64,000 nt of DNA from an uncultured Gemmataceae bacterium (GCA_963750165.1 CAVVPN010000010.1:128001-192000), one strand, 5' to 3'; shown: positions 30,510 to 56,839, counted from the first letter of the stretch. Numbers and translations are program-made. Notes: generated by a model not told the origin, from the letters alone.

Positions 30510-33832
<3,323 letters not shown>

Positions 33833-36251: not shown

Positions 36252-36369
36252 GGTGACCTCAAAGAATCCCCCGCCACAAAGGGCGCCACAAACGGGAATC
36301 TCTGAGGAAGCCTCAGAAAGGCAAAAGCCGATGTGCCAACCACTTATGGCACATCGGCAGACAGGCCAG

Positions 36370-36454
36370 CGGAGAGGGCGGGATTCGAACCCGCGGTGAG
36401 TTGCCCCACACGGCATTTCCAGTGCCGCACCTTCGGCCGCTCGGTCACCTCTCC
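36370..36454 (-). tRNA. tRNA-Ser(GGA)
   Basis: GGAGAGG acceptor stem, CGGCA-CTGGAAA-TGCCG anticodon arm, long variable arm, GGTTCGAATCC T-loop; CCA not encoded. Confidence 0.96.
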
Positions 36455-38669: not shown

Positions 38670-40817
38670 ATGCCAAAAGGTGATGCGGGCGAGTCCCCAC
38701 CTGCACCGCCGAAGTACGCGATGACCATCTCGCGGCTGACAGTCGATAAACTCGGCATCAAACTTTACGACCGCGTTTCCGCCGCCATCGCCGAGGTGGT
38801 GGCGAACAGTTACGATGCGGACGCTACTGAGGTCACCGTGTCCGCCCCGATGGGCGAGCTGCTGGCAACCAAGCATGGTGGAGTTCTTCGGGACAAAGGG
38901 TACGTAATCGAAGTTCAGGACAACGGCATCGGCATGACCGCCGATGAGGTCAACCAATTCTTCCTCGCCGTTGGTCGGGAGCGCCGACTCGATCCCAAGC
39001 GAGGCGGGGCAACCAAGATCTATAAGCGCCTGGTGATGGGTCGCAAAGGCGTGGGGAAGCTCGCGCCCCTCGGCATTTGCCAGCGGATCGAGGTGATCAC
39101 GGCCGGAGGCAGCGAAGTCAAGGTCGATAAGGAGAAGGGGTACGTCACTTCGCACATAATCCTGAACCGGAAGGACATGCTGGCGGACACGGACTCCAAC
39201 TATGTCCCCGACATTGGAAGGTTTGACGGCACGCTGCGCCCCGAGAAGGGCACGATCATCAGGATGCGGATGTTCGATCACCGGATCGTGCCGGAGCTGG
39301 ACGACTTCGAGCGGCAGTTGTCGCAACGGTTCGGCGTTCAGTCGCCGAACTGGAAACTGGTGCTTCGGGACAACCAGAAGACGGCTGCCGATCCGGACGC
39401 GACGCGGACGGTCGGCGAACTGAACATCGAGCTTCGCCTCGGGACGCGGATAGAGTTTCGCGAAGAACTAACTCCGAAGAACAAGAGCTACTCGCCACCC
39501 AAGTATTTGGCATTCGACGAAGGTGGGAAGGCGATGAAGGATCTGAAGGGCTCGTTCGAGTTCGAGGGCAAAGAATACCCTGTTACCGGCTGGGTTGGCT
39601 ACTCGAAGGTGCCGTACCGCGATCAGCAGATGGCGGGGGTTCGCATTTACTGTCGGGGAAAGCTCGCTGCGCAAACGCTGATTTTCGGCCGCAAGGCCGG
39701 CTTCACCGGCGAATACGACATCCGGTCATACTTTGTCGGCATGCTTAACGCCGACTGGCTCGATGACGAGGAAGACCTCATCCTCACGAGCCGTCAGGAC
39801 ATCCTGTGGTCGGAACCGCTGGCCAGGGCATTCGAGGAGTGGGGGCAGGGAGTTGTCAAGAAGGTCGGGACGATCACCCGCGAACCGGTCAGACAGGCTG
39901 CGTGGGACTTGTTCGTCGAGGAAACAAATGTCGAGGAAGAGGTAGAAGAAACGTACCCCGCTGATGAGCAGAGAGACATCCGCGAGAAGACAATAGAGAT
40001 CGCCAAGATGATGGTGAAGGCGGCTCGTCCTGATGAGTTACAAGATGAAGCGCGTCGGCGGTCGATGGTCGATCTGGCACTACTTGTGGGACCGCACATC
40101 ACGCTAGAGGAAAAACTGATCGAAGCGGCTGAGAACGACGACAACACGCTGGAGGTCGTTGCGGACATCCTTCGCACAGCCAGAGTTGCGGAGTTGACGT
40201 CATTCGGGCGCATTGCCGACGACCGGGTCAAGGTAATCAAAAAAGTCGAGAAGATGAAGGACGACGAGGACACCCTTGACGATGCGTTTCAGGCGCTGAT
40301 CGAGGAGTCCCCGTGGCTGATCAACCCGGAGTGGTCGCCAATTACTACCAACACGGGACTGGAGAAGCTGAAGGGGGAGTTCGTAAAGTTCTATCGCAGC
40401 GAAACCGGCGAACGCATTTCACTGTACAAGATGGACGGCTCTGACAAAGAAAAACGCGCCGAATTGGTGATCACTAACCAAGACCGAGTGATCGAGGTCA
40501 TCCTTATAAAGAGGCCCGGCGATCCACTCAAGAATGCGGAGATGGACCGACTTGTGACGTACCACGACTCGATGGATGCCTTCTTGCACAAAAAGGGTGA
40601 AGAAGACTATTTGAAAGGGTTCGAGAAGTTCCACATCACACTCGTCTGCGACTCATTGGCTCTCAAGGGGGCGCAAAAGGTGGCATTCGATGGGCTGCAA
40701 GCAAGCGGCGCGCTGACGCGGGTGGAGTGGGCCAAATTCCTCCAGCGGACGCGGAAGATGCACGAAGCCTTTCTTCAAGAAGCAGAGAGGCAAAGAAGCA
40801 ATGCCGCGAAGCGATAG
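38670..40817 (+). CDS. GHKL (MORC/HATPase_c_3) ATPase with a degenerate C-terminal PD-(D/E)XK-like domain
   Basis: EVVANSYDADA, DNGIGM, GRKGVGK, GT motifs; PWLI...RAELV...VILIKRP tail. Confidence 0.85.
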   Translation: MPKGDAGESPPAPPKYAMTISRLTVDKLGIKLYDRVSAAIAEVVANSYDADATEVTVSAPMGELLATKHGGVLRDKGYVIEVQDNGIGMTADEVNQFFLAVGRERRLDPKRGGATKIYKRLVMGRKGVGKLAPLGICQRIEVITAGGSEVKVDKEKGYVTSHIILNRKDMLADTDSNYVPDIGRFDGTLRPEKGTIIRMRMFDHRIVPELDDFERQLSQRFGVQSPNWKLVLRDNQKTAADPDATRTVGELNIELRLGTRIEFREELTPKNKSYSPPKYLAFDEGGKAMKDLKGSFEFEGKEYPVTGWVGYSKVPYRDQQMAGVRIYCRGKLAAQTLIFGRKAGFTGEYDIRSYFVGMLNADWLDDEEDLILTSRQDILWSEPLARAFEEWGQGVVKKVGTITREPVRQAAWDLFVEETNVEEEVEETYPADEQRDIREKTIEIAKMMVKAARPDELQDEARRRSMVDLALLVGPHITLEEKLIEAAENDDNTLEVVADILRTARVAELTSFGRIADDRVKVIKKVEKMKDDEDTLDDAFQALIEESPWLINPEWSPITTNTGLEKLKGEFVKFYRSETGERISLYKMDGSDKEKRAELVITNQDRVIEVILIKRPGDPLKNAEMDRLVTYHDSMDAFLHKKGEEDYLKGFEKFHITLVCDSLALKGAQKVAFDGLQASGALTRVEWAKFLQRTRKMHEAFLQEAERQRSNAAKR

Positions 40818-41947
40818 CCCGATCAGACTGAATGCCGTGGACATCTTCAGTGGCGCAGGCGGATTGACAACCGGCTTGAAAAAAGCTGGTTTTCGCGTCG
40901 TTGCCGGCGTGGAGATCGAGTCCCATGCTGTCTCCACGTTCAAGGTGAACCACCCGGACACCCATGTCTTCAAACAAGATGTTACGACAGTGCGCGGCTC
41001 CGACTTGGTCGAGCAGGCTGGCGGCGAAGACATCCACCTGCTCGCGGGATGCCCGCCCTGCCAAGGCTTCACGAGTTTGACCTCGAAGTACAAGCGGGGC
41101 GACCCCAGAAACGAGTTGATCGGGGAACTGGCGCGGCTAGTCGAGGAGGCCCGTCCCCATGCGGTCATGATGGAGAATGTTCCCGGTCTTACTCAAAAAG
41201 GCGTAAAGCTGTTCGACGCTTTCCTGAAGATCATCGAAGCGGCGGGCTACGTCCCTGAATACGAGGTGCTCCAAGTCGCGGACTACGGAGTTCCCCAAAG
41301 TCGCAGGCGGCTCGTATTGCTGGCAGGAAGGGGGTTCAAGATCGCTCTCCCGCCCGCAACGCATTCGCGCACCGGTGAGGGCCGGCTAGCGAAGTGGACG
41401 ACGGTTCGCAGTGCGATCGGGGACATGCCAACGCCGATCACGATGGCGGAAGTCAGGCGATCTACGAGCCCCGACATGCACTCCTGGCACGTGGTCCGGG
41501 AGTTGTGTCCGCGGAATCAAAGTCGCCTCCGGCATGCAAAGCCGGGGGATCACTGGAAGAAAATTCCAAAACGGCTTCGCCCACCGTGCCATCAGGACAA
41601 AAAGGCTGGGTTCAGCAATGTGTACGGGCGGATGAGCTGGGACGAAGTGTCGCCGACGATTACCGCCGGCTGCACGACACTCAGTAAGGGGCGGTTCGGG
41701 CATCCGGCAGAGGACCGCACGCTTTCCGCGCGCGAGGCTGCCATTTTACAGACTTTCCCGAGGGACTATGTGTTTGACTCTCCTTATATGGAATACGTCT
41801 GCGCGATGATCGGAAACGCCTTGCCGTGTGATTTCGCCGAGGTGCTCGCGAAGACTTGCGGTGAGGCGATCCGGGCGCACTTACTGCGCGGTTGCCGATG
41901 CCAAAGCCGCCGGGAAGCCCTCCTCCAGAAAGCCCCGGAAGAAGTAA
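40801..41947 (+). CDS. dcm: DNA (cytosine-5)-methyltransferase (as assembled, reads through into the ATPase to 43581)
   Basis: FSGAGG, GCPPCQGF, ENV, QSRRR, R.LS.REAA.LQTFP, IGNA. Confidence 0.92.
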
Positions 41948-42018
41948 ATGCCACCGGTTCAACGCCATCACACCAAGTACACAGCCAGAAGCAGGCTGAT
42001 CTGATCTGGAATGCCATC

Positions 42019-43581
42019 ATGGAATTCACAGTCCTGAAACGCGGTGCAAGGTTGCCGAAGAATGCCCGTGGCAAGGCATTTCTGATTCCGGACGACTGGG
42101 CCGACCGCGGGAAGTACAAGACGCAGTACCAGCTTACTATTTGCGACCACGGCGGCATGGCTCACACGATTGGCGATGTCAAGATCGGCGAATTCGGAAT
42201 GTCTGAAGGTCAAGCCCGCCCTTCGATCACAAGTCCCTTTGAGAAGCTTGACAAGAAGTTCTTCTCGCTCGGCCAGGACGGCACCTATTACGAGCGATTG
42301 ACGGAACTTGGAGCGGCGACAAGGAAGACGGTATTGTCCGCACTGCGGGATGTCGCCGCGGACAAGCAGCTCTTCGCAGGGGCATTGAAGGAAGATGTCA
42401 CCACCGAATCTCTTCTCAGTGCAGTTACGGCGGTTACGGTTCAGGGCCAATTCAGTAGGCTGGCGGTTGGCGGCGCGAGACTTACCGACTATCAGTTTAA
42501 GTACACAGCCCCCACCTTTGACAATCCCGAGGCGGATCTCATCCAACTATCGTTCGATGTAAAACATTCGTCAAATCCGCCATCGAATATCCATGTCTTG
42601 ATCGGCAAGAATGGGGTCGGCAAAACGCGGTTGCTGCACTACATGACGCTCGCGCTCATGGCGAAGGAACCTGACCCTGTCAATCGTGGGGTCTTTGAGC
42701 GGACAGACGGTGTGGCGGGCACGGCCCTGTTTGCGAACTTGGTGTCCGTTGCATTCAGCGCATTCGATCCATTCGAGCCTTTACCTGACCGCCAGGCTGA
42801 CGATGAGGGAATGCAGTACACCTATGTCGGCCTCAAGAACAGAAGCAAGGCCGGCGGGGCGCTCAAGAACCTAGACATGCTCACCACGGAGTTTGTGAAG
42901 GGCTTCCAAAAGTGCATTTCGGGACCAAAGGTCGATAGGTGGCGGACCGCTCTGCAGACGCTTGAGTCGGACTCAAATTTCAGGGACCACGGAGTCGTTC
43001 GGCTTGCGGAGGGGCTATCCGAAGAGGATGAAGACGAGGACGCCGATCCTGACCTGGACCAAGCCGGCCGGGCGGCTCTGCTGTTTGGCAAGTTGAGTAC
43101 CGGTCACAAGATGGTACTACTGACTGTCACGAGGCTCGTGGAAACCGTTGAAGAGCGGACGCTGGTGCTCATCGACGAGCCGGAGTCCCACCTGCATCCG
43201 CCGCTGTTGTCTGCATTCATTCGGGCACTTTCGGACCTGCTGATCGACAGGAATGGCGTAGCGATCATGGCCACACACTCGCCCGTCGTTCTTCAAGAAG
43301 TGCCTGCCAACTGCGTCTGGGTTCTGAGGCGGAAGGGGCAGATTGTCCGTCCCGTGCACTTGAAAACAGAAAGCTTCGGTGAGAACGTTGGGCTGCTGAC
43401 AAAGGAAGTGTTTCGGCTGGATGTCACCAGCTCAGGCTTCCACAAACTGTTGCAGGAAGCGGTGGACGAGAACCCGGACTACGATGCCATATTGAACAAG
43501 TTCTCAAACCGGTTGGGAGGAGAGGCAAAGGCAATTCTTGCCGCCCTGATTGCAACAACGGACGAGGGGGAGGCGAAGTAG
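42019..43581 (+). CDS. ABC/AAA_21 ATPase, Septu PtuA-like
   Basis: GKNGVGKT Walker A, LSTGHK signature, LIDEPESHLHP Walker B/D-loop, ATHSP. Confidence 0.85.
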   Translation: MEFTVLKRGARLPKNARGKAFLIPDDWADRGKYKTQYQLTICDHGGMAHTIGDVKIGEFGMSEGQARPSITSPFEKLDKKFFSLGQDGTYYERLTELGAATRKTVLSALRDVAADKQLFAGALKEDVTTESLLSAVTAVTVQGQFSRLAVGGARLTDYQFKYTAPTFDNPEADLIQLSFDVKHSSNPPSNIHVLIGKNGVGKTRLLHYMTLALMAKEPDPVNRGVFERTDGVAGTALFANLVSVAFSAFDPFEPLPDRQADDEGMQYTYVGLKNRSKAGGALKNLDMLTTEFVKGFQKCISGPKVDRWRTALQTLESDSNFRDHGVVRLAEGLSEEDEDEDADPDLDQAGRAALLFGKLSTGHKMVLLTVTRLVETVEERTLVLIDEPESHLHPPLLSAFIRALSDLLIDRNGVAIMATHSPVVLQEVPANCVWVLRRKGQIVRPVHLKTESFGENVGLLTKEVFRLDVTSSGFHKLLQEAVDENPDYDAILNKFSNRLGGEAKAILAALIATTDEGEAK

Positions 43582-43584
43582 ACC

Positions 43585-44439
43585 ATGCAACCTCTCACGC
43601 CCATTACCGCCACGGCTGAGGAAGTGTTCCTGGCATGTATTAGCAAAATCAAGAAAGCGGTCCTGAAGCAGAAGCTAACGGCAATCAAGGGTGACATTGT
43701 TAACTTTGACGTTGCCTATGTAGCCGCAGGCAAGAAGCCTCCCGGAACACCTGTTTCGTTCTTTTCGCTTTCTGCCCACAGAAAAGTGGGAGCGGTCACA
43801 AAAAAGGAGATGGAGAGGGTATATGATGGGCGTATGGTCGGTGGACCTGGGCGGAAATACTACGACGAGATCCTTGATCTATGTGACGACGACATCTGCC
43901 CGCTTTGCGGTCTGCGTCTTGTCGAGACGCTGGATCATTACTTACCTAAGTCTCGATATCCCGCCCTTGCCGTTGCGCCAAACAACCTTCTTCCAGCATG
44001 CTACCCGTGCAACATCAAAAAGCGCACTGCGGTTCCGAAATGCGTTAGCAAGCAGTGCATTCACCCATACTACGACAACATTGATGCCGAAGTGTGGCTT
44101 ACGGCGTCCATCGAAAAGCCTCAGACGCCCGTCGTGGTCCTCTTCGATGTTGCCCCTCCCGCTTCCTGGGACACGGTTACTAAAAAGCGCGTCAAACACC
44201 ATTTCAAAGAACTGGCGCTCGGTCGCTTGTACTCGATCGTCGCGGGCGGAGACATTGTCGGCAACAAGCACGAGTTCACGAGGCTCCGGAACACTGCCGC
44301 TGGTGCCGCGGCCGTCAAGAAGTATCTGCTGGAGCAAGAAGCCACTCGACGAGCGGCGCGACGAAACTCGTGGCAAGCCGCGCTCTACAAAGCCCTAGCC
44401 ACCGATGCATGGTTTTGCGACACGGGCTGCCTTGGTTAG
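43585..44439 (+). CDS. HNH endonuclease, Septu PtuB-like
   Basis: CPLCG...TLDHYLPKSRYP...NLLPACYPCN, IHPYYD. Confidence 0.87.
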   Translation: MQPLTPITATAEEVFLACISKIKKAVLKQKLTAIKGDIVNFDVAYVAAGKKPPGTPVSFFSLSAHRKVGAVTKKEMERVYDGRMVGGPGRKYYDEILDLCDDDICPLCGLRLVETLDHYLPKSRYPALAVAPNNLLPACYPCNIKKRTAVPKCVSKQCIHPYYDNIDAEVWLTASIEKPQTPVVVLFDVAPPASWDTVTKKRVKHHFKELALGRLYSIVAGGDIVGNKHEFTRLRNTAAGAAAVKKYLLEQEATRRAARRNSWQAALYKALATDAWFCDTGCLG

Positions 44440-44713: not shown

Positions 44714-46108
44714 TTACCTCCCTCGCCCCTCAACCGCCCTGGCCGCGTTACTCGCCGTGCGCAGCGCGTATTTCTCCCCCTCTTCCTGCGCCTTGCCGCT
44801 TTCCTGCATCAGGCGGGCCGCGGTCTCCTCGACGCTCCATCCCCAATCGATCGCCAACACACAGAAGGTGAAATCCGCCTTGCTTCGGTCCGGCCGCCCT
44901 TCCTTCCAGGCCTTCGGGTGTTCCAGGCATTGCCGATAACTCGGCCAGCCGCAGGCGTCGAGTGGCCTGGGACGGGGAATCACAGTCGCGGTGAATTTCT
45001 CCTGTGGCGCGACCAGGCCGAGGGCGTCTAGTTCGGCCTGGGTCACCACCCTGCCCGGGCTTGTGGAAACCGTCTCGACGCGCGGGAACGCCGGCGTGTA
45101 CTTCTCCTTGAAATTCATGCTGCCGCTGACGCGCACGGCGCCCGATGCGGTCAGGTCGGCCCCTGCCCCTTTCCGCAACCGCCGGGCGAAATCGGCGTCT
45201 CCGTCGGCTACGGCAATCCAGGCCTGGAAGCTGCCGGGACTGGTGCGCAGCACCAGGAACGACACCGGCCGCAACCGCACCGCCCCGTCCTCGCCAAGGT
45301 CGTCGAGTTGGATCAGCGTGGCGCCGGCGGACCGCGGGCGCACGATGACGTTGTGCCGCCGTGCGGCGGCTTCCCGGAGGATGGCGGGCATGTCGGATCG
45401 CAGCTGGTCGAGCGGGCGGTTTCCTCGGAAGCCGACCTTCTCGCCGGCGGCATCGGTGAACGTCAGGTCAAACCGCCCGGCGCCGACGCTGGCGAAGGCG
45501 TCGAGCATCTCCCGCGCCAGCGCCCCGGCCCGTGTTTCTTCTTCTTCCGGTGACTGCGGCAATGGTTCGTGACCGATTCCGGCCGCCTGATCCTCCGCGG
45601 AACCGCAGGAGCGGCCGCCGCCGTCAGCGTCCCGGGGACTTGTATCGCTGACTGCAAGGCCCCACCAATCGAGGGTCGGCGACATACCGTGCTTTTCGCG
45701 GTATTCCTGGAGGATGAGCAGGAACTGCTCATGCAGCACGTCGCGGCTGTCTCCGCGAGCGGTGGGATCATACTCGGTGGATTTGTCGAGCGGGTACACC
45801 CAGGGTTTTCCCGGCTCATGCGACCGCCACGTCCAGCCGAGTTCCTTAAACTGGTCGGTCAGTTCACGGCCAGGGTCCGGGTCCACGCCCTCCGGCGCCG
45901 TGAACACCACCTGCACCTGGGCGAAGCGGCGGTCGCGGCGGAAGCGGGCATAACGGCCGTTGCCGATGTCGATGATGTCCTCGCTGATGACCTGGGGCAA
46001 GCGCCTGGTCCACCGGCGTCGGCGCGGCTGCACCGGCTCGCCGGTATCAGGCGGCGTCAGGTCATCGGCCTCCCCTTCCCCGGCCATCTCGGGCGCCGCG
46101 TCGTTCAC
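44714..46108 (-). CDS. RepB'-type (AEP) DNA primase with extra N-terminal domain
   Basis: LIQLDDL, RTSPGSFQAW, GAD...RVSG..NFK, C-terminal DRSKADF...Y..RT helical bundle. Confidence 0.78.
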   Translation of the reverse strand: MNDAAPEMAGEGEADDLTPPDTGEPVQPRRRRWTRRLPQVISEDIIDIGNGRYARFRRDRRFAQVQVVFTAPEGVDPDPGRELTDQFKELGWTWRSHEPGKPWVYPLDKSTEYDPTARGDSRDVLHEQFLLILQEYREKHGMSPTLDWWGLAVSDTSPRDADGGGRSCGSAEDQAAGIGHEPLPQSPEEEETRAGALAREMLDAFASVGAGRFDLTFTDAAGEKVGFRGNRPLDQLRSDMPAILREAAARRHNVIVRPRSAGATLIQLDDLGEDGAVRLRPVSFLVLRTSPGSFQAWIAVADGDADFARRLRKGAGADLTASGAVRVSGSMNFKEKYTPAFPRVETVSTSPGRVVTQAELDALGLVAPQEKFTATVIPRPRPLDACGWPSYRQCLEHPKAWKEGRPDRSKADFTFCVLAIDWGWSVEETAARLMQESGKAQEEGEKYALRTASNAARAVEGRGR

Positions 46109-47699: not shown

Positions 47700-47969
47700 T
47701 TATCCACAGGTGGCGCCTGTGTGTTATAGATGAGTTAATTACTTGTGTTAAAGGGCCGAACTCGACGTGCAAGCCCTTGTAGAAGCTGGAACATTTCATA
47801 GCACTTCCGTGTAAATACACGAAAGGTTCTGGGCAAATGCACGATGGTTTTCGTGTAAAAGCACGATAACGGCTTGCGCCGTGTGATCGCACGAAACGGC
47901 CATTTTTCGGGTGAAAACACGATGCTTGACATTTCTGTGTGAAAGCACGAATATGGGTGAAAACACGAA
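47700..47969. promoter_or_regulatory. Plasmid replication origin: DnaA box, AT-rich segment and 7 iterons
   Basis: TTATCCACA at 47700-47708; YGKGTRAAARCACGAW-type repeats at 47808, 47830, 47852, 47880, 47908, 47936, 47954, directly upstream of repA. Confidence 0.82.
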
Positions 47970-47980
47970 ACGGCCGACCG

Positions 47981-49024
47981 ATGGACACCCCCCCGACGCG
48001 CTCCCCCCTCCTGCCCGAACGCCACCCGATCCAGGACTTCTTCATCTGCGACGTGGCCGACGCCATCCCCAAGGACGACATGGGCTCGATGGAGCACCCG
48101 ATCTTCTCCCTGGCCACCAAGCCCGACATGGGCGTCCGGGAGTACGAGCACAACGGCGTGCGCCTCGCCGTCCTGCCCAGCGTCCTGGGGCTGGCCACCA
48201 TCCACGACAAGGACATCCTCATCTACTGCATCAGCCAACTCGTCGCCAAGCTGAACGCCGGCGTGCCGCTGCAGCAGACGCTGCACCTCAAGGCCTACGA
48301 CCTGCTGGTGGCCACCAACCGCAACACCGACGGCCGCGGCTACGAGCAGCTGAAGGGCGCCCTGGACCGCCTGAGCGGCACCCGCATCCGCACCAACATC
48401 CGGACGGGGGACCAGGAGGTCACCGAGGGCTTCGGCCTGATCGACGGCTGGAAGATCGTCCGGCAGACGAACGGCGGCCGCATGACGGAGCTGCGCATCA
48501 CCCTCTCGGAGTGGGTCTTCAACGCCGTCACCGCCCGCGAGGTCCTGACGCTGCACCGCGACTACTTCCGGCTGCGCAAGCCCCTGGAGCGCCGCATGTA
48601 CGAGCTGGCCCGCAAGCACTGCGGCAAGCAGGACGAGTGGGCCATCTCCCTGGAACTGCTCAAGAAGAAGTGCGGCTCGGCCTCGGACGAGTACGAGTTC
48701 CGGCGGCTGGTCGGCATGATCTGCGACGAGGACGCGCGCCACCACCACATGCCGGATTACGCCGTCGCGTTTGACGGCGCCAACGTGCGGTTCGTGAACC
48801 GCAGCGCCCTGCGCCTCCTCCCCGCCCCGCCAGCGGCCTACCCCGTGCTCGACCCGGAAACCTACCACGACGCCAGGACCGTGGCCCCCGGCTATGACGT
48901 GTACTACTTGGAGCAGCAGTGGCGGTCCTTCTGGGTCGAGAGCGGCAGGCCGGAACTGACCAACCCGGACGCGGCCTTCCTCGGCTTCTGCAAGATCCGC
49001 CACGGCAAACAGCCAAACCCGTAA
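47981..49024 (+). CDS. repA: Plasmid replication initiator protein A (RPA family)
   Basis: LLPERHP..DFFICD...KDD..SMEHPIFSL, GLATIHDKDILIYCISQL, YFRLRKPLERRMYELARKHCG. Confidence 0.9.
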   Translation: MDTPPTRSPLLPERHPIQDFFICDVADAIPKDDMGSMEHPIFSLATKPDMGVREYEHNGVRLAVLPSVLGLATIHDKDILIYCISQLVAKLNAGVPLQQTLHLKAYDLLVATNRNTDGRGYEQLKGALDRLSGTRIRTNIRTGDQEVTEGFGLIDGWKIVRQTNGGRMTELRITLSEWVFNAVTAREVLTLHRDYFRLRKPLERRMYELARKHCGKQDEWAISLELLKKKCGSASDEYEFRRLVGMICDEDARHHHMPDYAVAFDGANVRFVNRSALRLLPAPPAAYPVLDPETYHDARTVAPGYDVYYLEQQWRSFWVESGRPELTNPDAAFLGFCKIRHGKQPNP

Positions 49025-49113: not shown

Positions 49114-49368
49114 TCAATCGGGTTTCGCCGCCTCTCCGGCCGGCGTCAACTCCCGCTCGATCAGGGCGCGGACCTTGTCCTGGATGGTCACGCCCTCGAC
49201 GACGCACCGGCCCTTGAACGCCGTGTGCAGCGGCGCCGGGAGGTTCAGGGTCAGCCGCTTCTGCGGCCCTCCTTCGCCTCGCACCCACTGGTCCGGAAGG
49301 GCCGGCAACTCCTCCTTGGCCGCCCGCGGCCGCACGCTGAAATCTACCGTCTTTTTCTTGCCCGTCAT
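49114..49368 (-). CDS. parG: ParG-like ribbon-helix-helix partition protein
   Basis: KRLTLNLPAPLHTAFKGRC...TIQDKVRALIEREL; overlaps the parA stop. Confidence 0.78.
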   Translation of the reverse strand: MTGKKKTVDFSVRPRAAKEELPALPDQWVRGEGGPQKRLTLNLPAPLHTAFKGRCVVEGVTIQDKVRALIERELTPAGEAAKPD

Positions 49369-49991
49369 GACGCCAGCTTCTGCACCTCCCTGGCCAGGGA
49401 TTGAATCTCCTTGCTCGCCGCGCTGTCCGCGTCGAGTTCCAGCACCGTGCGCCCGTGGGCGCTTTCGGCGAAGGCCACCCGCTGGCAGACGGTCGTCTGG
49501 AGCACCGGCTGCGGGTACTGCTTGAGGGCCTTGGCCACGTCGCGGCCGATGGCGGTGTTGGCGATCTTGCGGTTGATGACGAACGCCGCCCTGAGCTGGG
49601 GCTTGTAGGTGGCGCACTCCTGCAGCAGCTTGACCGTCTCCTCGGCCGCCCAAACATCGAACTGGCTGGGCAGGACCGGGATCAGGACGGCGTCGCTGGC
49701 CATGACGGCGCTTTTGGCCACCTCGTACACCCGCGGCGGGCCGTCAATGAGGACCACATCGAAGTCCCTGGCCATCTTGGCGAGTTCCAGGTGGAGGATG
49801 GGCTTGCTCATGCCGATGACGGCGAACGGCGTGTCCTGGCCGCGGGCGGCGACCCAGTCGAGGGCGGACCCCTGGGGGTCGGCGTCCACGACCAGCACGC
49901 GTAGTTTGCGGGCGGCGAGGGCGGCCGCCAGGTTGACCGATAAGGTCGTCTTGCCGACGCCGCCCTTCTGATTGATGACCGAGATAATCAA
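49365..49991 (-). CDS. parA: ParA (type Ib) partition ATPase
   Basis: NQKGGVGKTT, DADPQGS, IDGPP; TTG start. Confidence 0.92.
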   Translation of the reverse strand: MIISVINQKGGVGKTTLSVNLAAALAARKLRVLVVDADPQGSALDWVAARGQDTPFAVIGMSKPILHLELAKMARDFDVVLIDGPPRVYEVAKSAVMASDAVLIPVLPSQFDVWAAEETVKLLQECATYKPQLRAAFVINRKIANTAIGRDVAKALKQYPQPVLQTTVCQRVAFAESAHGRTVLELDADSAASKEIQSLAREVQKLAS

Positions 49992-50039
49992 GCACTGCCC
50001 TTTCGTTGCGTTGCACTGGCCGTTCCCTGGCGCGTCGGC

Positions 50040-50400
50040 AGTTTGCCGCTTTTCCGGGAAGGCGGAAAACCGCTTCCCCGCCGACCCGCCTTCCTGCATA
50101 AATGGTTTTGCGGCGATGTCAAGCAGGTTGTAACCGGGCGAAGCGGCAAAGCGTAAAGGCGGAAAGCCGCCGAAGCGTTTCGGCACTTCGGCGGGTAAGC
50201 GTGGTTGATGTTAAGCGTTCTGGCGCGTCGGCGGAAAAGCGTATTGCCGCCGACGCGCCGAAGAGGGAAAGCGGTGAGGCTGTTCGGCGTGGAGGCGGCA
50301 AACCGCTCAGGCGGCAACGCGCCGAAATACAGAGGCGGTAAGGCGACCTGGCGGAAAGGCGGCACTGTGGTAACGCGGCAACACTGCTATCCGCCGATGT
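50040..50400. repeat. Degenerate ~8-bp periodic GCGG(A/C)AA(A/G) repeats upstream of parA (centromere/operator candidate)
   Basis: e.g. AAGCGGCAAAGCGTAAAGGCGGAAAGCCGCCGAAGCG and many similar units. Confidence 0.55.
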
Positions 50401-50707
50401 GATTCCCCGCCAAGGCGTGTCCCCGCCGACACAGTTAAGCGGCTGACTGAATCCGGGGCTTTCCCGGGGAAATCCCCTTGGGTTGACACAGTCAAAGATT
50501 CCGAAGCGAAGCCTTCGGGAAGACGCCTGCCCTTCTACTGGCTTTACCACACCTGCGAGACTTCGTGCCCGCCAGCGTGTGCCCTGGGGGCGATTTGGGG
50601 GGTAGGGATGGGGGGCCGACCGAGGCATCCGTATCGGGACGATGGCATCCTTCAACCGCGGGAGAGGGGAGAGCGGAGCCTCCCACCAGGCAGGGCGGGA
50701 CCGCCCA

Positions 50708-51820
50708 TCAGTGGCCGGACATAGCCGGGGCTGAAGGCACGACTCCGGTGTTGGCGCGGCGGCGCACCCGCCGGATCGTCCGGCCGTTCACACCGGCCTG
50801 GAGGCTGATTTCGTCGGCCGGAAGCCGCTCCGCCTCGGCCGCGATCCACTTTACCGCCGCTTGCGTCAGGCGGAAAGCCGGGTGAATGCCTTCGGGCAGC
50901 GGGGCGAACGTGTGGCCGCAGGCCGTGCAGCGAAAGCGGCTGCGGGTCAGGGCCAGGCGGACAGGGCGGCCGTGTCGCGGATGGTCCCACACACGGGTCG
51001 TCCTGCCGCCGTGGCCGGCCAGCCGGGTGGCGTCCGGCGCAGGCCGCGCGCAGCCCGGGCAGCTGACGGGTTCGTGGCGGAACCGGGCATGCACCAGGTA
51101 GCCGCCGGTGCCGGAGGACACGCGCTCCACCGTCCACCCCGGTCGGGCAAGCAAGTGGTCTCCCAGGCCGCCGCGGAAGAAGTCAGGCGCCGCCGCCGCG
51201 AGCAAAGCATCGTCCGATTCCCCGTGCAACCGCTGAAGCCAGCCCAAAGCGAGGGGAATTCTTTGATCCGGCCAGCGGGAAAAGCCCGATCCGTCGATGC
51301 TGTCGCAGCCGAGTTGGTAAGCGTGTCGGAACCGTTTCCTGGTGTTGCACCTTCCGAAGTGCGACCATTTCCCGCGCTGCTTCGCCTCTCGTGCGACCGC
51401 GGCGGCGTGCGGACCGAGTTTCCACTCCGTGCTGCCGCCGATGAAGAGGGCGTCGAGGTCGTCCCAGGAAACGGCGAGGCGTTCGAGCCCGTCCTGGGCG
51501 ACGAGGGCGACGGGCAGGCCGAGGGCGCGGATCACCGGCGACCAGACGGCGAACCGCCGCAAGGTGGCCGCCGCGTCCCCGACAACATCGGGGCAGGCCA
51601 CGAACCGGCACCCCGGGTGGCCAGCGATCCGGCCGAGCATCCGGCAGAACCGGGCCGCGTCGAATCCGGTGAAGGCGGCGTTGTCCGCCGCCCAGGGAAC
51701 GCCGGCCGTCAGCAGCGGGTCCACGCGGTTGCCGGCCCCGGGCACGACCAGCGCCCCGAGGTAAGGCGAGCCGAGGTGGCGGCGCAGGGTGGCGGTGGCT
51801 CCAGAGACGAACAGGCGCAT
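50708..51820 (-). CDS. TGT/DpdA-like TIM-barrel transglycosylase fused to an ISL3-type Zn-ribbon/HTH
   Basis: Ordered motifs DNAAF, PDV, QDG, FIGG, HFGR, DSIDG; C-terminal CPGC...RVWDHP..GRPV.L...RFRCTACGHTF. Confidence 0.65.
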   Translation of the reverse strand: MRLFVSGATATLRRHLGSPYLGALVVPGAGNRVDPLLTAGVPWAADNAAFTGFDAARFCRMLGRIAGHPGCRFVACPDVVGDAAATLRRFAVWSPVIRALGLPVALVAQDGLERLAVSWDDLDALFIGGSTEWKLGPHAAAVAREAKQRGKWSHFGRCNTRKRFRHAYQLGCDSIDGSGFSRWPDQRIPLALGWLQRLHGESDDALLAAAAPDFFRGGLGDHLLARPGWTVERVSSGTGGYLVHARFRHEPVSCPGCARPAPDATRLAGHGGRTTRVWDHPRHGRPVRLALTRSRFRCTACGHTFAPLPEGIHPAFRLTQAAVKWIAAEAERLPADEISLQAGVNGRTIRRVRRRANTGVVPSAPAMSGH

Positions 51821-51941
51821 GGGGACGGGAGGAGTGACAAACCAGGTGGAAAATGCCACGCGGCGACAGACTTCGCAACCGGAAATGTCCACGCGCCGGC
51901 CGCCGTTGCGGCGATGGCGATGCGTTGCACGTGTTCGGTGG

Positions 51942-52154
51942 TTATGAGTACCTCCTGTTACTGTTGAACGCCGCAGCCCGCCACGCCTCCATGGCGCGCT
52001 GGTACGTCTCGCCGAGCGCCCGTATCTCCGCCGTCTGCCTGTCGGGCTGGTAGCGGTAGTCACCGGCCTTCCTGCCGTAAGCGCGCCTCAGCGCCTCACC
52101 GAAGCGCTGGTCGGCTTCCTGGGCGAGAAGGTAGAGGGTGAGTAAGCGAGTCAT
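51942..52154 (-). CDS. Small hypothetical protein
   Basis: RBS GAGGAGG; overlaps the upstream stop codon. Confidence 0.55.
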   Translation of the reverse strand: MTRLLTLYLLAQEADQRFGEALRRAYGRKAGDYRYQPDRQTAEIRALGETYQRAMEAWRAAAFNSNRRYS

Positions 52155-52399
52155 GGTGCTTCCTCCTCTGGGTTGCCGTGCTCGGCGTCGAAGTGCATCC
52201 TGGCGAGCCGCAGGGATTGATCGACGTAGGCTTCCGCCTCGCCGCCGTCCTCCGCTGCGTAATGCGCGGCCAGGTGCAGCAGGTCAGCGATCAGGTCGGT
52301 GATCTCGACCGTGCTGGCCTCGAAGTCCTCGCCCTTGGCCGAGACGTAGGCTTCCAGGGTTTCGGCCGCGCGAGCGGAACGGATCGTGTTGTTGGTCAT
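52151..52399 (-). CDS. Small acidic hypothetical protein
   Basis: RBS GGAGGA; N..R..RA...L...TDLIADLLH motif. Confidence 0.6.
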   Translation of the reverse strand: MTNNTIRSARAAETLEAYVSAKGEDFEASTVEITDLIADLLHLAAHYAAEDGGEAEAYVDQSLRLARMHFDAEHGNPEEEAP

Positions 52400-52935
52400 A
52401 CTGTCCTCCCGGTCGCTGCGGCGACGGCGTCTCGACAAGCGCGGGCGGCTTCGGCGAGGTCGCCCTGTTCCCAGCGGTCCACCACCATTCGGCAGGCGGC
52501 AAGGAGGGACGCCGCGGCGTCCCGGAGCCGGGCCGGTGCATCGAGGTGCCGCAACACGCCATCCTCCTCCGGGGTATCCACCCGCCATTCGTCCCAGTAA
52601 TAACCTTCATCGCATTCCTCGACGGGGGCGTCCGCAACGGCCTGGCGGGCTTTCGCCAGGGCCTCGTGCGGTGATTCCGCGTCCACCTCGCACCGGGCGA
52701 AGAAGGGGCGGTCACACCAGGCGGTGACGAGGTATGTGGTCGTGGTTCTCACGGCGGCGGCCATCACCTGCATCGCGGCAAGAGTCGGCGGCACCGGGTC
52801 GGTCCCCTCGGGCAGCCAGAAGTGGCGGCTCGTCACGAGGTCATCACCGTGGGCGTCACGGATGATGGCGATGTCCTCGGTGCCGTCGCGGTCGAAATGT
52901 AGCGACCAGGGCGTGTTGAGTTGAAGATGTGTCAT
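52396..52935 (-). CDS. Hypothetical protein
   Basis: RBS AAGGAG; translationally coupled within the operon. Confidence 0.6.
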   Translation of the reverse strand: MTHLQLNTPWSLHFDRDGTEDIAIIRDAHGDDLVTSRHFWLPEGTDPVPPTLAAMQVMAAAVRTTTTYLVTAWCDRPFFARCEVDAESPHEALAKARQAVADAPVEECDEGYYWDEWRVDTPEEDGVLRHLDAPARLRDAAASLLAACRMVVDRWEQGDLAEAARACRDAVAAATGRTV

Positions 52936-52949
52936 GATGGTCTCCTTTC

Positions 52950-53228
52950 TCAATAGTCCAGGGGGAGAAGAATCGTGGTCACGGAGCGGTCGGCTTCGGT
53001 GATGATCCAGAATCGCTGCACGCCGTTGCCGTAGGCCGACAGCAGGCGGCCGCCTTCCTTCAGCGAGCGGTTGTTTTCGTGAACGTCCTCCGCAGGAATG
53101 TCGCCCCAGTCGCCACGGGCGTGGCGGCTCAGGGCTTCGTGAATTGCCTTGCTGTCCAACTGGGAAGCGGCGTTGGCCGTGATGACGACCCGCCCGAGCG
53201 GGAAGGTGAATCGAACCGTCCTGGTCAT
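52950..53228 (-). CDS. Conserved plasmid-related protein
   Basis: FPLGRVVIT...RHARGDWG...N...G.RLLSAY...WIITEADRSVTTILLP.DY. Confidence 0.75.
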   Translation of the reverse strand: MTRTVRFTFPLGRVVITANAASQLDSKAIHEALSRHARGDWGDIPAEDVHENNRSLKEGGRLLSAYGNGVQRFWIITEADRSVTTILLPLDY

Positions 53229-53292
53229 AACAAACTCCTTGTTTTGGTGGTTGAAAAAAGCCGGCGGGCGAGGGTACCCGCCGGCATCCAAT

Positions 53293-53553
53293 TCAGGCGG
53301 CTGCCTGTTCGGACTGCTTGCGGGCCTTGCGGTCGGCTTCAAGCTGGTGCAGAACCCAGGTGTGGGCCAGGTCGAGCAGTTTCGCGGCCGGCAACAGGTC
53401 CTCGAAGCCCAGGTTGTCGGTCTCGCGCCAGCCCTCGTCGGCCTTGTAGCCGCGGGTGAGTTTGACGGAGTACCAGTTGCCCTTGTCGGAGAGGTTCCTC
53501 CAGACGGTGGCTTGCAGGCTGCCGATACGAAGTTTGTGTGCGGGTGATGACAT
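53293..53553 (-). CDS. Small putative ssDNA-binding protein
   Basis: P..K.RIG.LQATVWRN...YSVKL.R.YK...W..T...DL motif; RBS AAGGAG. Confidence 0.6.
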   Translation of the reverse strand: MSSPAHKLRIGSLQATVWRNLSDKGNWYSVKLTRGYKADEGWRETDNLGFEDLLPAAKLLDLAHTWVLHQLEADRKARKQSEQAAA

Positions 53554-53608
53554 GATGTTCTCCTTCTCGTTTGCAGGCCCGACCATCGGGCCTTTCGTGG
53601 ACGCGCCC

Positions 53609-53712
53609 GAACCCGGCTCAGGCCTCCGGAGCAAGCGGAAAATTGGAGGGGCCGCGCAGCGGAGGAACCGATTTTCTGCTTGGCGCAGCGCACGCCGGAG
53701 GACGCCGGGTTC
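53609..53712 (+). other. Branched stem-loop in the oriT-candidate intergenic region
   Basis: Nested pairings GAACCCGGC/GCCGGGTTC, CCTCCGG/CCGGAGG, AAGCGGAAAATTGG/CCGATTTTCTGCTT. Confidence 0.6.
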
Positions 53713-54151
53713 AGCTTCCACAAGAAAGGCCAGGGGGTGGGTTGCCGGAACGAAGGGGGGCATCAGGACAGCGTCCCTGCACCGCAGGCTTCTCGGCGGC
53801 CGGCAGCGCTTCCGTCGGGCCGAAGACACGGGCAGTGCTGGGGTGGCAAAGGAGGACCCGGGCTCCGGACACACACGAGTCGCAGGCAGGCGGGAACGTC
53901 GCCATCCGGTAGGGAACTGTCGCAGAGCCCAACTGTCCGGCGTGGCCGCTGACGGGCAGCAGGGAAGCGGGCAGGGGTGAAGCGTCCGGCAGGCGCGGGA
54001 AAGGCGGGGGCAGGGCTGACAGGGGGGTGACACCGCGTTGGCATTGGCCGTGCGGCGCCTGGCCGGGGGTGCAGTTCTGGGAGACAGGAAACGCAACCGG
54101 GAGTAACGTCACGGTTGATTTTTTGCCAGCATTGAGTGCATATACTGGCGC

Positions 54152-56839
54152 ATGCTCCGCATCACCCCGCAAGACAGTGCCCAGGGCGCCAAGCGCTATT
54201 ACGCCAGCGCCGACTATTACAGCGAAGGCCAGGAGATCATCGGCTCCTGGGGCGGCAAGGGCGCCCGGCTTCTGGCGCTGGAGGGGGTCGTTGACCGGGA
54301 AGCGTTCGAGCGCTTGTGCGACAACCTCAACCCGCGGAACGGTGAGCAACTGACCGCCCGCACACGCGCCGACCGCACGGTGGGCTACGACTTCACCTTC
54401 TCGGTGCCGAAGTCGGTGTCGCTGCTCTACGCCCTGAGCGGCGACCGGGAGATCCTCGACGCCTTCCGCTCGGCCGTGGACGAGACGATGCAGGGCATTG
54501 AGGCCGAGATGAAGACGCGGGTGCGCAAGGGCGGCAAGGACGGCGAGCGCGTCACGGGCAATCTGGTGTGGAGTGAGTTCATCCATACGACCTCGCGGCC
54601 GGTGGCGGGGGTGCCCGACCCGCAGCTGCACGCCCACTGTTTCGTCTTCAACACGACATGGGACGACCAGGAGCGGCAGTGGAAGGCCGGCCAGTTCCGC
54701 GACCTGAAGGCGTCGGCGCCGCTTTACCAGGCGATGTTCCGGGTGCGGCTGGCGGGCAAACTGCAGGACCTGGGCTTCGGCGTCGAGCGCAAGCGCGATG
54801 ATTTTGAGCTGGCGGGCGTGCCGGCCGGCGTGCTGAAACGCTTCTCGCGGCGGACGGAGCAGATCGAGGAGAAGGCGAAGCAGCTGGGGATCACCGACCC
54901 GAACCGCAAGGCCGAGCTGGGCGCCGCGACGCGCGAGAAGAAGACCAACGAGTTGAGTTGGAATGAGCTGCGCAAGGACTGGGACAGTCGGCTGACTCAG
55001 GCCGAGCGGCAGTCGCTGGCGGCGGTGCACCGGCGGGAGACGCCCTGGGCCCGCCCGGTGCAGGGCGAGGGGCAGGCGGTGGATTTCGCGCTGGGCCACT
55101 GCTTCGAGCGCGAGTCGGTGGTGGCGGAGCGGAAACTCCTCACCGAGGCGTTGAAACGTGGCCTGGGCGCGGTGACGGTGGAGGGCGTGCAGAAGGAACT
55201 GGCCCGGCGCCCCCTGATCCGGGGCGAGCAGGATAGCCGCGGTATGGCGACGACCCGGGAGGCCGTGGCGGAGGAGTCGCGGCTCCTGGCCTTCGCCCGC
55301 CAGGGGCGGGGGCGTTACCGGCCGCTGGGCGACCCCGGCCGGCCGGTGTCACGGGAGTGGCTCAATGACGGGCAGAAGGCGGCGGTGCGGCACGTGCTGG
55401 GCTCGCGCGACCGCGTGACCATCGTGCGCGGGGTGGCCGGCACCGGCAAGACGACCCTGGAGCAGGAGATCGGCGAGGCGCTCGCCAGCGCCGGCAAGCA
55501 GGTGGTGGCCCTGGCGCCGACGGCGGAGGCGAGTCGCGGCGTCCTGCGCCAGGAGGCGAAGTTTGCCGATGCCGACACGGTGGCCCGGTTCCTGCGCGAC
55601 CGGTCAATGCAGGAGCGGGCCCGCCGCGGCGTCATCCTGGTCGATGAGGCGTCGCTGCTCTCGACCAAAGACATGTTGCGGCTCTTTGACGCGGCCGGCC
55701 AACTGGAAGCCCGGGTGGTGCTGGTGGGCGACCGAAGACAGCACCGCAGCGTCGCCGCCGGCGAGCCGCTGCGGTTGCTGGAGCAGAAGGCCGGGCTGCC
55801 CGTGGCCGAGGTCAAGGACATCCTCCGCCAGTCGGGGGACTACAAGAAGGCGTCCCGGCTGCTGAGCGAGGGCAGGACGGCGGAAGGCTTCGCCGAACTG
55901 GACCGGCTGGGCTGGGTGCGGGAGGTGCCCGACGGCGAGCGCTACCAGGCCCTGGCCGGCGCTTACCTGGCGGCGACCGCCGAGCGGAAACGCAACGGCG
56001 AGCCCAAGACGGCGCTGGTCATCAGCCCGACCCACGCCGAGGCGGCGCGGATCACCCACGCCATCCGCGACACGCTGAAGTCCCAGGAGAAGCTCGGCAA
56101 GGAGAGGACGTTCGACGTGTGGCTGCCGGGGCACCTGACCGACGCGCAGAAGGCCGACGCCACGAACCTGGAGGCCGGGGACCTGCTCGTCTTCCACCAG
56201 AACGCCCCGGGCCGCAGGAACGGCGCGCGGCTGGTCCTGGGCGACGGGACGCGGGCGCCGGTGGAATATGCGTCGCGCTTCGAGGTCTACCGCCCGGCCC
56301 GACTGGTGCTGGCCGTGGGCGACCGGATTCGGCTGACCGCCAACGGCAAGACGCGGGACGGGCGCTACCGGCTGCACAACGGGTCGCTGTACACCGTGGC
56401 GGGGTTCACGAAGCAGGGAGACATTGTCATCGACGGCGGCCGGGTGATCGCCAAGGACTGGGGCCACCTGGCGCTGGGCTACGCCGTCACCTCGCACGCC
56501 AGCCAGGGTAAGACGGTGGACCGGGTGTTCGTCGGCCAGGCGGCGCAGTCGTTCCCGGCGTCGAACCGCCGGCAGTTCTACGTGAGCCTGTCGCGGGGCA
56601 AGGAGCAGGCGCTGGTGTTCACCGACTCGAAAGCGGGGCTGCTCCAGGCGGTGAGCCGGGCCGACGAACCGCTGTCGGCAACGGAACTGGCCGCGAGCCG
56701 GCGCCCGCCGCCGCTGCGGCAGCGTCTGCAACGCCATCTGAGTTACCTGCGGCGTCAGGCCGCCTTCCGGCAAGCGCACGAGCCGCGGCGGCCGGAGCTA
56801 ACCCGGGCACAGGTGCAGGAGCGGGGTTATGACCGATGA
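54152..56839 (+). CDS. trwC: MOBF (TrwC/TraI) relaxase-helicase
   Basis: YY...DYY, DFTFSVPKSVS, H.TSR...DPQLHAH, GVAGTGKT, DEA, GD.RQ, YAVTSHASQGKTVD. Confidence 0.94.
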   Translation: MLRITPQDSAQGAKRYYASADYYSEGQEIIGSWGGKGARLLALEGVVDREAFERLCDNLNPRNGEQLTARTRADRTVGYDFTFSVPKSVSLLYALSGDREILDAFRSAVDETMQGIEAEMKTRVRKGGKDGERVTGNLVWSEFIHTTSRPVAGVPDPQLHAHCFVFNTTWDDQERQWKAGQFRDLKASAPLYQAMFRVRLAGKLQDLGFGVERKRDDFELAGVPAGVLKRFSRRTEQIEEKAKQLGITDPNRKAELGAATREKKTNELSWNELRKDWDSRLTQAERQSLAAVHRRETPWARPVQGEGQAVDFALGHCFERESVVAERKLLTEALKRGLGAVTVEGVQKELARRPLIRGEQDSRGMATTREAVAEESRLLAFARQGRGRYRPLGDPGRPVSREWLNDGQKAAVRHVLGSRDRVTIVRGVAGTGKTTLEQEIGEALASAGKQVVALAPTAEASRGVLRQEAKFADADTVARFLRDRSMQERARRGVILVDEASLLSTKDMLRLFDAAGQLEARVVLVGDRRQHRSVAAGEPLRLLEQKAGLPVAEVKDILRQSGDYKKASRLLSEGRTAEGFAELDRLGWVREVPDGERYQALAGAYLAATAERKRNGEPKTALVISPTHAEAARITHAIRDTLKSQEKLGKERTFDVWLPGHLTDAQKADATNLEAGDLLVFHQNAPGRRNGARLVLGDGTRAPVEYASRFEVYRPARLVLAVGDRIRLTANGKTRDGRYRLHNGSLYTVAGFTKQGDIVIDGGRVIAKDWGHLALGYAVTSHASQGKTVDRVFVGQAAQSFPASNRRQFYVSLSRGKEQALVFTDSKAGLLQAVSRADEPLSATELAASRRPPPLRQRLQRHLSYLRRQAAFRQAHEPRRPELTRAQVQERGYDR

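Follow-up and report, generated by a model that had tools for sequence, protein, structure and literature searches.

What does the gene lying between the partition genes and the relaxase of a planctomycete mobile element encode: a DNA-modifying enzyme with its own DNA-binding module, or a chance read-through into an IS remnant? The gene is part of a 64,000-nt stretch of DNA from an uncultured Gemmataceae bacterium (hereafter, the window). From the sequence alone, the original prediction was a compact tRNA-guanine transglycosylase (TGT)/DpdA-like enzyme fused to an ISL3 zinc ribbon and HTH, using host precursors and shielding a mobilisable element from restriction. DNA modification with 7-deazaguanines has been described in phages and in bacterial Dpd islands. 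DpdA1 to DpdA4 and bDpdA have been defined (PMC10516641), and TGT in other systems has been described (PMC12839542).

The fused gene

Translation gave one open 370-aa frame on the minus strand (51820-50708). All motifs of the original prediction were recognized, in the TGT order: DNAAF (46–50), PDV (77–79), QDG (109–111), FIGG (126–129), HFGR (154–157) and DSIDG (173–177). They were followed by a CxxC at 254/257 and a second at 298/301. The AlphaFold model of the fused protein, obtained from 37 fused homologues, had a mean pLDDT of 89.8 and a pTM of 0.62. It consisted of a barrel (residues 1–198), a low-confidence linker (205–209) and a second compact module. A 451-aa frame from 52063 was rejected as the gene start, the extension not being common to homologues, and overlapping plus-strand ORFs were rejected for lack of conservation.

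Table 1 Features of the fused gene and of the surrounding element, in window positions.
Feature	Position	Strand	Basis and remarks
repA	47939..49024	+	PF10134, E 2e-89
parG	49114..49368	-	PF09274, over cut-off
parA	49365..49991	-	Pfam AAA_31/CbiA
Degenerate direct/inverted repeats before parA	50040..50430	.	Families D1-D3, I1-I2; probable partition site
Fused gene, 370 aa, ATG at 51820	50708..51820	-	Start matches aligned fusions
ISL3 N-terminal module, aa 223-356: Cys4 zinc ribbon + HTH, no DDE	50753..51154	-	Pfam, NCBIfam, ISL3 profile
Linker, aa 201-222, variable, FFRGG partly conserved	51155..51220	-	Alignment; pLDDT <50 at 205-209
Minimal TGT/DpdA-like TIM barrel, aa 1-200	51221..51820	-	PHROG 15826, E 1e-57; model, fold search, DpdA1 profile
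Promoter-like element TTGCGA-N17-CATTTT, ~30 nt before ATG	51850..51878	-	Pattern from fused genes; putative function
Five small co-oriented ORFs, putative oriT side to fused gene	51942..53586	-	No Pfam family over cut-off
Presumed oriT gap upstream of relaxase	53587..54151	.	Position only
MOBF (TrwC) relaxase-helicase	54152..56839	+	PF08751, E 1e-71

A minimal barrel of the TGT/DpdA superfamily

In the model, eight barrel strands lie within residues 2–176, with the DNAAF-to-DSIDG motifs at the ends of strands 3–8, and the barrel ends about 20 residues past D176. A fold search against 48,161 chains placed TGT (Z 13.9), archaeal TGT (13.6), Cap10 (13.5) and DpdA (7ui4, 13.0) within the top 17, with an rmsd of 3.0–3.5 over 190–195 aligned residues. 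The top match was pyruvate kinase (Z 15.2) and the TGT/DpdA relatives were mixed with other barrels, so that the fold alone cannot decide the family. Viral structure matches included several annotated queuine tRNA-ribosyltransferases, and proteins of phiST and nt-1 appeared among the BFVD fold matches to the barrel.

At the sequence level, a search of solved structures gave chance-level matches only, and the barrel had no Pfam, NCBIfam or PADLOC family match. Residues 12–199 matched positions 13–201 of 212 of PHROG 15826 (function not annotated; E 1e-57). Single sequences compared with the barrel profile were not significant (Sonali gp87 2.4%, HVTV-1 gp69 0.2%, host TGT 0.1%); the kinship with TGT/DpdA was settled only by a deeper profile–profile test. 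By hhalign, the 499-sequence barrel profile matched a 121-sequence DpdA1 profile (seed Sonali gp87) at 93.1%, with an E of 3.3e-7 over 145 columns. 9g DpdA is recovered by this DpdA1 profile at E 5e-67, as is Rosebush gp2 at E 2e-65. Control profiles stayed low (pyruvate kinase 1.2%, PdxJ 1.1%, four reversed profiles ≤0.5%). The bacterial TGT profile reached 0.4% against the barrel, which is not significant, and DpdA1 against TGT itself reached only 5.9%. Of the check proposed with the original prediction, HHpred or Foldseek against TGT/DpdA, the profile–profile part pointed to DpdA1, and the Foldseek part was unspecific: the whole model against the PDB gave generic TIM barrels, with no TGT among the matches listed.

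The aspartates D46, D78 and D176, plus G128-G129, K134, H154, R157 and R163, were 99–100% conserved in the 499 sequences, and position 50 was F or Y in 97% of them. In the profile alignment, which is not a superposition, D46, F50, D78, G128-G129, H154 and D176 align to DpdA1 motifs. Their equivalents in S. Montevideo DpdA are D95 (acid/base), F99, D130, G206-G207 and D256 (nucleophile), and mutation of D95 or D256 abolishes exchange (PMC10164549). By analogy with D95, D130 and D256, D46 is the putative acid/base, D78 would read the base and D176 would be the nucleophile. Together, the TIM-barrel model, the DpdA1 profile and the aligned aspartates agree with the predicted enzyme type, and residues 1–200 are, as far as such comparisons go, a TGT/DpdA-superfamily enzyme barrel with its active-site residues kept.

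An invariant Gln occupies position 109, and the host TGT has the same residue, in contrast to the His of DpdA1 and of S. Montevideo DpdA (His181). This TGT-type residue favors a different substrate: the base exchanged by the barrel could be one in RNA (tRNA) or in free deoxynucleotides, not in polymeric DNA, its small size reflecting a small substrate. In the same direction point the lack of the insertion with which DpdA cradles DNA (PMC10164549) and the position of the barrel in phages phiG7 and R29Z, between clamp and DNA polymerase genes and beside a separate DpdA1. However, the nearest tested profile is the DNA-acting DpdA1 and not TGT, the barrel also lacks TGT's anticodon-stem insertions (PMC10164549), the host has its own tgt, and a fused module of DNA-binding type is retained under selection. 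We consider an RNA or nucleotide substrate unlikely.

Distribution of the barrel family

The barrel profile found 3,522 clusters at 50% identity. The median length in the family was 212 aa; the top 150 matches included 147 new proteins, 122 of them no longer than 235 aa. Most members lack the ISL3 module, indicating that it is not needed for the basic activity of the family. Among 50,697 phage records, 27 were matched, and several actinophage copies are annotated in GenBank as “DpdA-like tRNA-guanine transglycosylase”. The barrel was found in one of 401 genomes of the phylum. Among 252 genomes of the taxonomic family, four had full fusions, and nine more had barrel-only or broken copies. Relatives with names came from Gemmataceae and other Planctomycetota records. 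Taken alone, the barrel is not new: it represents a large phage/plasmid family, some phage copies of which already bear the name DpdA-like.

In the phages Sonali and R29Z, and as two ORFs in phiG7, the barrel accompanies a DpdA1 and que genes, which hints at a different job. In phiG7 (L400:6932-7524, split) and R29Z (L401:4767-5351) it immediately precedes the DNA polymerase gene, on the border of a DpdA1/preQ0 cluster. Other barrel fusions were with QueC (P0257), a serine recombinase (P0389) and a SprT-like domain (P0259). P0390 (1670 aa), a phage portal-like protein that also has an ART-PolyVal domain, contains the barrel within it, which suggests that the barrel is delivered with the virion.

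Link to 7-deazaguanine supply

Loci were fetched for 79 genome and 80 viral matches (best 80 of 148 and of 581) and dereplicated to 107 at 80% identity. A VUT/YhhQ gene, for a preQ0/preQ1 transporter, was found within 5 kb in 46 of the 107 loci, in all 46 co-oriented with the barrel and in 40 within 100 nt of the match. All four VUT genes tested in Pfam passed the Vut_1 cut-off. Small profiles for QueC, QueD, QueE, FolE and QueF, with seeds from four loci (three Pfam-confirmed), matched in 16 of the 107 loci. Overall, 57 had a VUT or que gene within 5 kb. A transporter with a TGT is also the layout of queuosine salvage, which counts for the RNA or nucleotide substrate.

At the 11 planctomycete element loci, including the window, we found no VUT, que or DpdA1 genes, and window positions 36000-64000 were free of que and VUT genes. 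The absence of que genes had been part of the original prediction. The host genome (93% complete) encoded tgt, queC and queF above the Pfam cut-off, and folE, queD and queE by small profiles; VUT was not found in it. Host supply of the precursor is plausible, since the host carries a de novo preQ0/preQ1 pathway. A second QueC-like gene was located at G000:C4:851747-852352. Phage DpdA1 can use host preQ0, and phages having only DpdA were proposed to use a host or imported precursor, some with YhhQ (PMC6884629); the yhhQ of CAjan is described in PMC7544227. Bacterial DpdA needs the DpdB ATPase (PMC10164549), and no such partner adjoins the fused gene. A Pfam scan of the neighbours gave no dpdB, dpdC or restriction genes next to it, and the protein had no PADLOC match.

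The barrel may also work in the opposite sense, removing or transferring deazaguanine. It would then reverse Dpd-type marks of the host, leave abasic sites, or handle a protein-linked base as Cap10 does. The fold score of Cap10 (type IV CBASS), level with TGT and DpdA, speaks for this, as do the barrel-QueC fusion and the copy inside the portal/ART polyvalent protein; Cap10 keeps the same active-site geometry (10.1101/2025.04.06.647259). Yet the precursor importer coupled to the barrel in 46 of 107 loci would suit an enzyme that uses up a free base, and no recurrent CD-NTase or similar partner was seen among the neighbour clusters. We regard removal or transfer as improbable.

The ISL3 module

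The C-terminal part matched ISL3 transposase N-termini in several searches. Residues 251–301 matched Pfam Zn_ribbon_ISL3 just above the cut-off (25.7 vs 25.5 bits), residues 309–352 matched HTH_Tnp_ISL3 below the cut-off, and residues 243–356 corresponded to positions 2–111 of 370 in NCBIfam transpos_ISL3. Atlas clusters matched by the module carry the same zinc ribbon and HTH families. When six fused loci were compared in every frame with a profile built from 13 full-length ISL3 transposases, all six matched through profile positions 6–138 of 397 and no further, signifying that no DDE remnant is present there; the predicted ISL3 N-terminus without a DDE core was thus recovered. No inverted-repeat pair flanked the module in 49900-54300, a search that short imperfect IS ends could escape. 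Modelled alone, the module had a pLDDT of 93.4, with generic HTH matches only (best Z 4.4) and no Foldseek match at E 0.001. It was not found in the viral contigs searched with the same query.

In an ISL3 subgroup (loci L365, L366, L367, L370 and L371, from four genomes of the taxonomic family) the transposase frame breaks at one shared A-run immediately following IDELSLKK and the DDE part continues in a different frame, which looks like a programmed frameshift.

Conservation and origin of the fusion

Among the best 120 of 663 matches, 43 covered at least 70% of the fused protein, with 48–70% identity apart from the protein itself and one 98% variant. A match to the C-terminal module was seen in 44 of 270 proteins, and 38 spanned most of it. 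In all 37 aligned fusions D46, F50, D78, Q109, G128, G129, H154, D176 and the four cysteines were invariant, and all 37 ended 9–84 residues after T348, the HTH landmark. The identities of the barrel and ISL3 halves correlated (r 0.80), a value reached in none of 5000 permutations. Mean identity among the fusions was 37% for the ISL3 module vs 68% for the barrel. The dN/dS was 0.09–0.21 for the barrel and 0.17–0.47 for the ISL3 module (six distinct coding sequences; 14 of 15 pairs computable each). Most pairs were near saturation, the closest giving 0.09 and 0.17, respectively. Both modules are, judging from these ratios, under purifying selection.

In the barrel tree (183 of 499 sequences), the 44 fused-labelled sequences, including one truncated and one frameshifted, fell inside one clade of 60 (support 0.976), which also contains 16 unfused proteins. 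In the C-module tree, 37 fused sequences stood apart from 18 ISL3 N-termini with a support of 0, so that a single capture is not proven from this side. The simplest reading of the trees would be one ISL3-module capture with later losses. Among 649–2000-aa proteins (8000 candidates scored), a search for a full barrel-ISL3 transposase fusion gave three matches, none of them ISL3. The 98%-identical protein, P0002, leaves the frame after about residue 253, inside the ISL3 module. An assembly artefact as the source of the fusion was rejected by its recurrence, the invariant cysteines and the purifying selection on the ISL3 part.

A fusion unique to this assembly, made by chance read-through, had been named as the case against the original prediction. 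The near-complete module in 38 of 270 proteins, the co-divergence and the selection contradict it. More broadly, the C-terminal part could be a functionless IS remnant, read through by chance, on an ordinary mini-DpdA. This draws on the unfused barrels of similar elements (G583, G500), on the frame lost within the module of P0002, and on an unfused subclade nested among fused proteins in the barrel tree. It is opposed by the four cysteines kept in 37 of 37 fusions, the module's dN/dS of 0.17–0.47 wherever it could be computed (14 of 15 pairs), with 0.17 for the pair showing least saturation, the co-divergence of the halves, and the narrow range of protein ends. The functionless-remnant reading is, on this comparative evidence, largely refuted and appears very improbable.

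The mobile element

The fused gene sits between parA-parG-repA and the MOBF relaxase, on the strand opposite to the latter (Table 1); the relaxase bears out the mobilisable element of the original prediction. The same layout, with the gene between the upstream side of the relaxase and parA, was found in three of five fused elements (window, G635:C503 and G443:C7). Of the remaining two, one had the gene at the relaxase's tail and the other had no relaxase within 20 kb. In conjugative elements, anti-defence genes are enriched beyond oriT, on the side facing away from the relaxase (PMC11541004). The fused gene has a like position in those three of five elements, on the far side of the presumed oriT. 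Two of the five small ORFs are common to related elements. The gene arrays of related elements include ArdC-like, ParB-like and DNA methylase genes, and the window's own array had no match to these. What we take to be a DarB-like methylase-helicase lies just beyond the window end.

A sister element (G000:C1:248692-282514), about 90% identical in the rep/par and relaxase regions, lacks the fused gene, and unfused barrels occur on similar elements (G583, G500). The copies in G520 and G507 are interrupted by other mobile elements. Together with the frame loss in P0002, these interruptions and the sister element show that the gene is dispensable. On the sister element, a ParB-like gene stands in place of the fusion.

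A TTGCGN-N17-CATTTT-type element was found upstream of six of six distinct fused genes, the same six that defined the pattern, and also before one held-out broken copy (L389). The pattern had 78 matches in the 9.6-Mb host genome, and a generic sigma-70 scan gave nothing at the upstream element of the fused gene. As an alternative to protection, the ISL3 module may bind a single sequence on the mobile element, for which its own promoter, the partition repeats and oriT are candidates. The barrel would there write a local deazaguanine regulating transcription or transfer, or the module would merely autoregulate the gene, and anti-restriction across the whole element would not be its purpose. The N-terminal domain of a transposase is expected to be sequence-specific. 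The conserved upstream element contains a short direct repeat in six of six genes, a 76%-similar 21-mer (D12) occurs near the relaxase start, and the ISL3 module varies faster than the barrel. But the spacing within the upstream element is that of an ordinary promoter, and the neighbours on related elements are anti-restriction and methylase genes. A site-directed mark or switch is unlikely, although it is the foremost of the alternatives.

Proposed role

We give an even chance to the reading that the protein is a two-module DNA guanine transglycosylase, tethered to the element and protecting it from restriction. This draws on the domain composition, the kept catalytic residues, purifying selection in both halves, the family's coupling to deazaguanine supply, the pathway in the host and the location on a mobile element. 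By DpdA chemistry, D176 would attack the sugar and release guanine, with D46 as acid/base, and a host-made 7-deazaguanine (preQ0 or preQ1) would go in where guanine left. The captured ISL3 module would act as a flexible DNA tether, raising activity on, or bias towards, the element's own DNA. The barrel itself would lack the large insertion, zinc site and tail that form the DNA surface of DpdA. Modified guanines could then guard the element against restriction while it transfers by conjugation or afterwards, and the tether would limit the cost to the resident host. A more specific version is doubtful: a self-targeting single-chain deazaguanine writer, in which a transposase end-binding domain, domesticated once in planctomycete MOBF elements, tethers the 200-aa enzyme, hypermodifying the element in cis from a host tRNA precursor and largely sparing the chromosome.

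In favor of this role, the DpdA of phage 9g, acting on its own in E. coli, introduced dPreQ0 into plasmid DNA; against it, among phages with a singleton DpdA, Orion had no modified G and 7-11 had 0.02% (PMC6884629). Several further results count against the two-module transglycosylase: the fold search was not TGT-specific, the TGT profile reached 0.4%, Gln109 is of the TGT type, most of the family does without the ISL3 module, three phages have the barrel besides DpdA1, the gene is dispensable, and two of the five fused elements lack the shared layout. Gln109, the co-occurrence with DpdA1 and the broken copies (G520, G507, P0002) keep the rival explanations in play.

Relation to known systems

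With phage DpdA1 (9g, CAjan, Rosebush) the fused protein shares a homologous barrel, the motif order, the catalytic aspartates and a home on mobile elements. The differences are in size (296–385 aa in three DpdA1 proteins vs ~200 aa for this barrel), in Gln instead of His at strand 5, in the ISL3 fusion and in the MOBF element; moreover, the barrel co-occurs with DpdA1 in three phages. Similarity to DpdA1 is below BLAST level, with the family HMM, run on an 8-sequence set, giving E 0.005 against 9g and E 1e-5 against Rosebush. The barrel does not cluster with DpdA1: a DpdA1 HMM scored 215 bits for 9g and 210 for Rosebush, and 2.8 for the barrel. The actinophage proteins of PHROG 15826 (Phegasus, Majeke, Bhagsy, Aoka, Sonali gp81) belong to the same family, with 44–53% identity over most of the barrel. 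They are stand-alone, ~205 aa and often VUT-coupled, whereas the fused clade has the ISL3 module and no VUT.

The bacterial Dpd system (DpdA, DpdB, DpdC) has the TIM barrel and catalytic triad in common with the fused protein (Z 13.0 to 7ui4). Unlike it, bacterial DpdA has Ins8 and a CXCX2CX22H zinc site (as defined in PMC10164549). DpdA4/DUF6610 (HVTV-1 gp69) was the nearest Pfam-labelled Atlas cluster (score 0.90), and its SIDG motif aligns; however, PF20314 was found in none of 72 members (gp69 itself 190.8 bits), and the family HMM against gp69 gave E 0.47. From bacterial tRNA TGT (PF01702) the fused protein differs in having no Pfam or NCBIfam TGT match and in the 0.4% profile result. ISL3 transposases have the same zinc ribbon and HTH at the N-terminus; here these are C-terminal and selected, with no DDE and no IS ends found. 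The barrel is, on sequence criteria, an annotated minimal family set apart from DpdA1, DpdA4, bDpdA and TGT.

In the literature searched, we found no report of 7-deazaguanine counter-defence on mobilisable elements, of a DNA-binding module joined to a DpdA-like enzyme, or of a function test for the barrel family, which may be named elsewhere. The text and readable supplements of PMC11541004 had no deazaguanine, queuine, DpdA or ISL3 term, and PMC5512222 had no queuine or deaza term. The names of six carrier phages did not occur in the supplements of either PMC6884629 or PMC10516641, in both of which control names were found; the PMC10516641 table, without Rosebush and Orion, is not a full list. 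What is new, as read from sequence comparison, is that planctomycete MOBF elements carry a DpdA-like barrel in a selected fusion with the DNA-binding module of a transposase.

The fusion is a clear case of transposase-domain domestication, and the fused form lends itself to asking how a barrel of this size locates DNA, with the module and without it. A function for one member would bear on thousands of phage and plasmid genes. If the self-targeting version is true, 7-deazaguanine counter-defence would extend from phages to conjugatively mobilised elements, and nature would offer a pattern for small DNA base-swapping tools that can be retargeted. For site-directed DNA labelling, a 200-aa DNA transglycosylase whose tether can be exchanged could be useful.

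Other features of the window

At the left edge of the mobile region there are a tRNA-Ser(GGA) gene (36369-36454) and an IS4/5-family transposase (37355-38227). In the search for the element's ends, the tRNA-Ser had no att repeat, and three tyrosine integrases and one resolvase fragment went unmatched on the contig. A defence cargo follows (38670-44439), with an ATPase/REase-like gene, a 926-aa ORF and an HNH (PDC-M01B) gene. The 926-aa ORF joins a C5 methylase to a PtuA/PDC-M01A ATPase, a join that may be an assembly frameshift. An mfd-like gene (30510-33832), recognized in the translation by eye, runs across two frames, which suggests indel errors in this assembly. The RepB-primase-like gene at 44714-46108 had a weak Pfam match and is common to the sister element. 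On the same contig, outside the window, we found an array of 16 tRNA genes (G000:C10:88560-90125).
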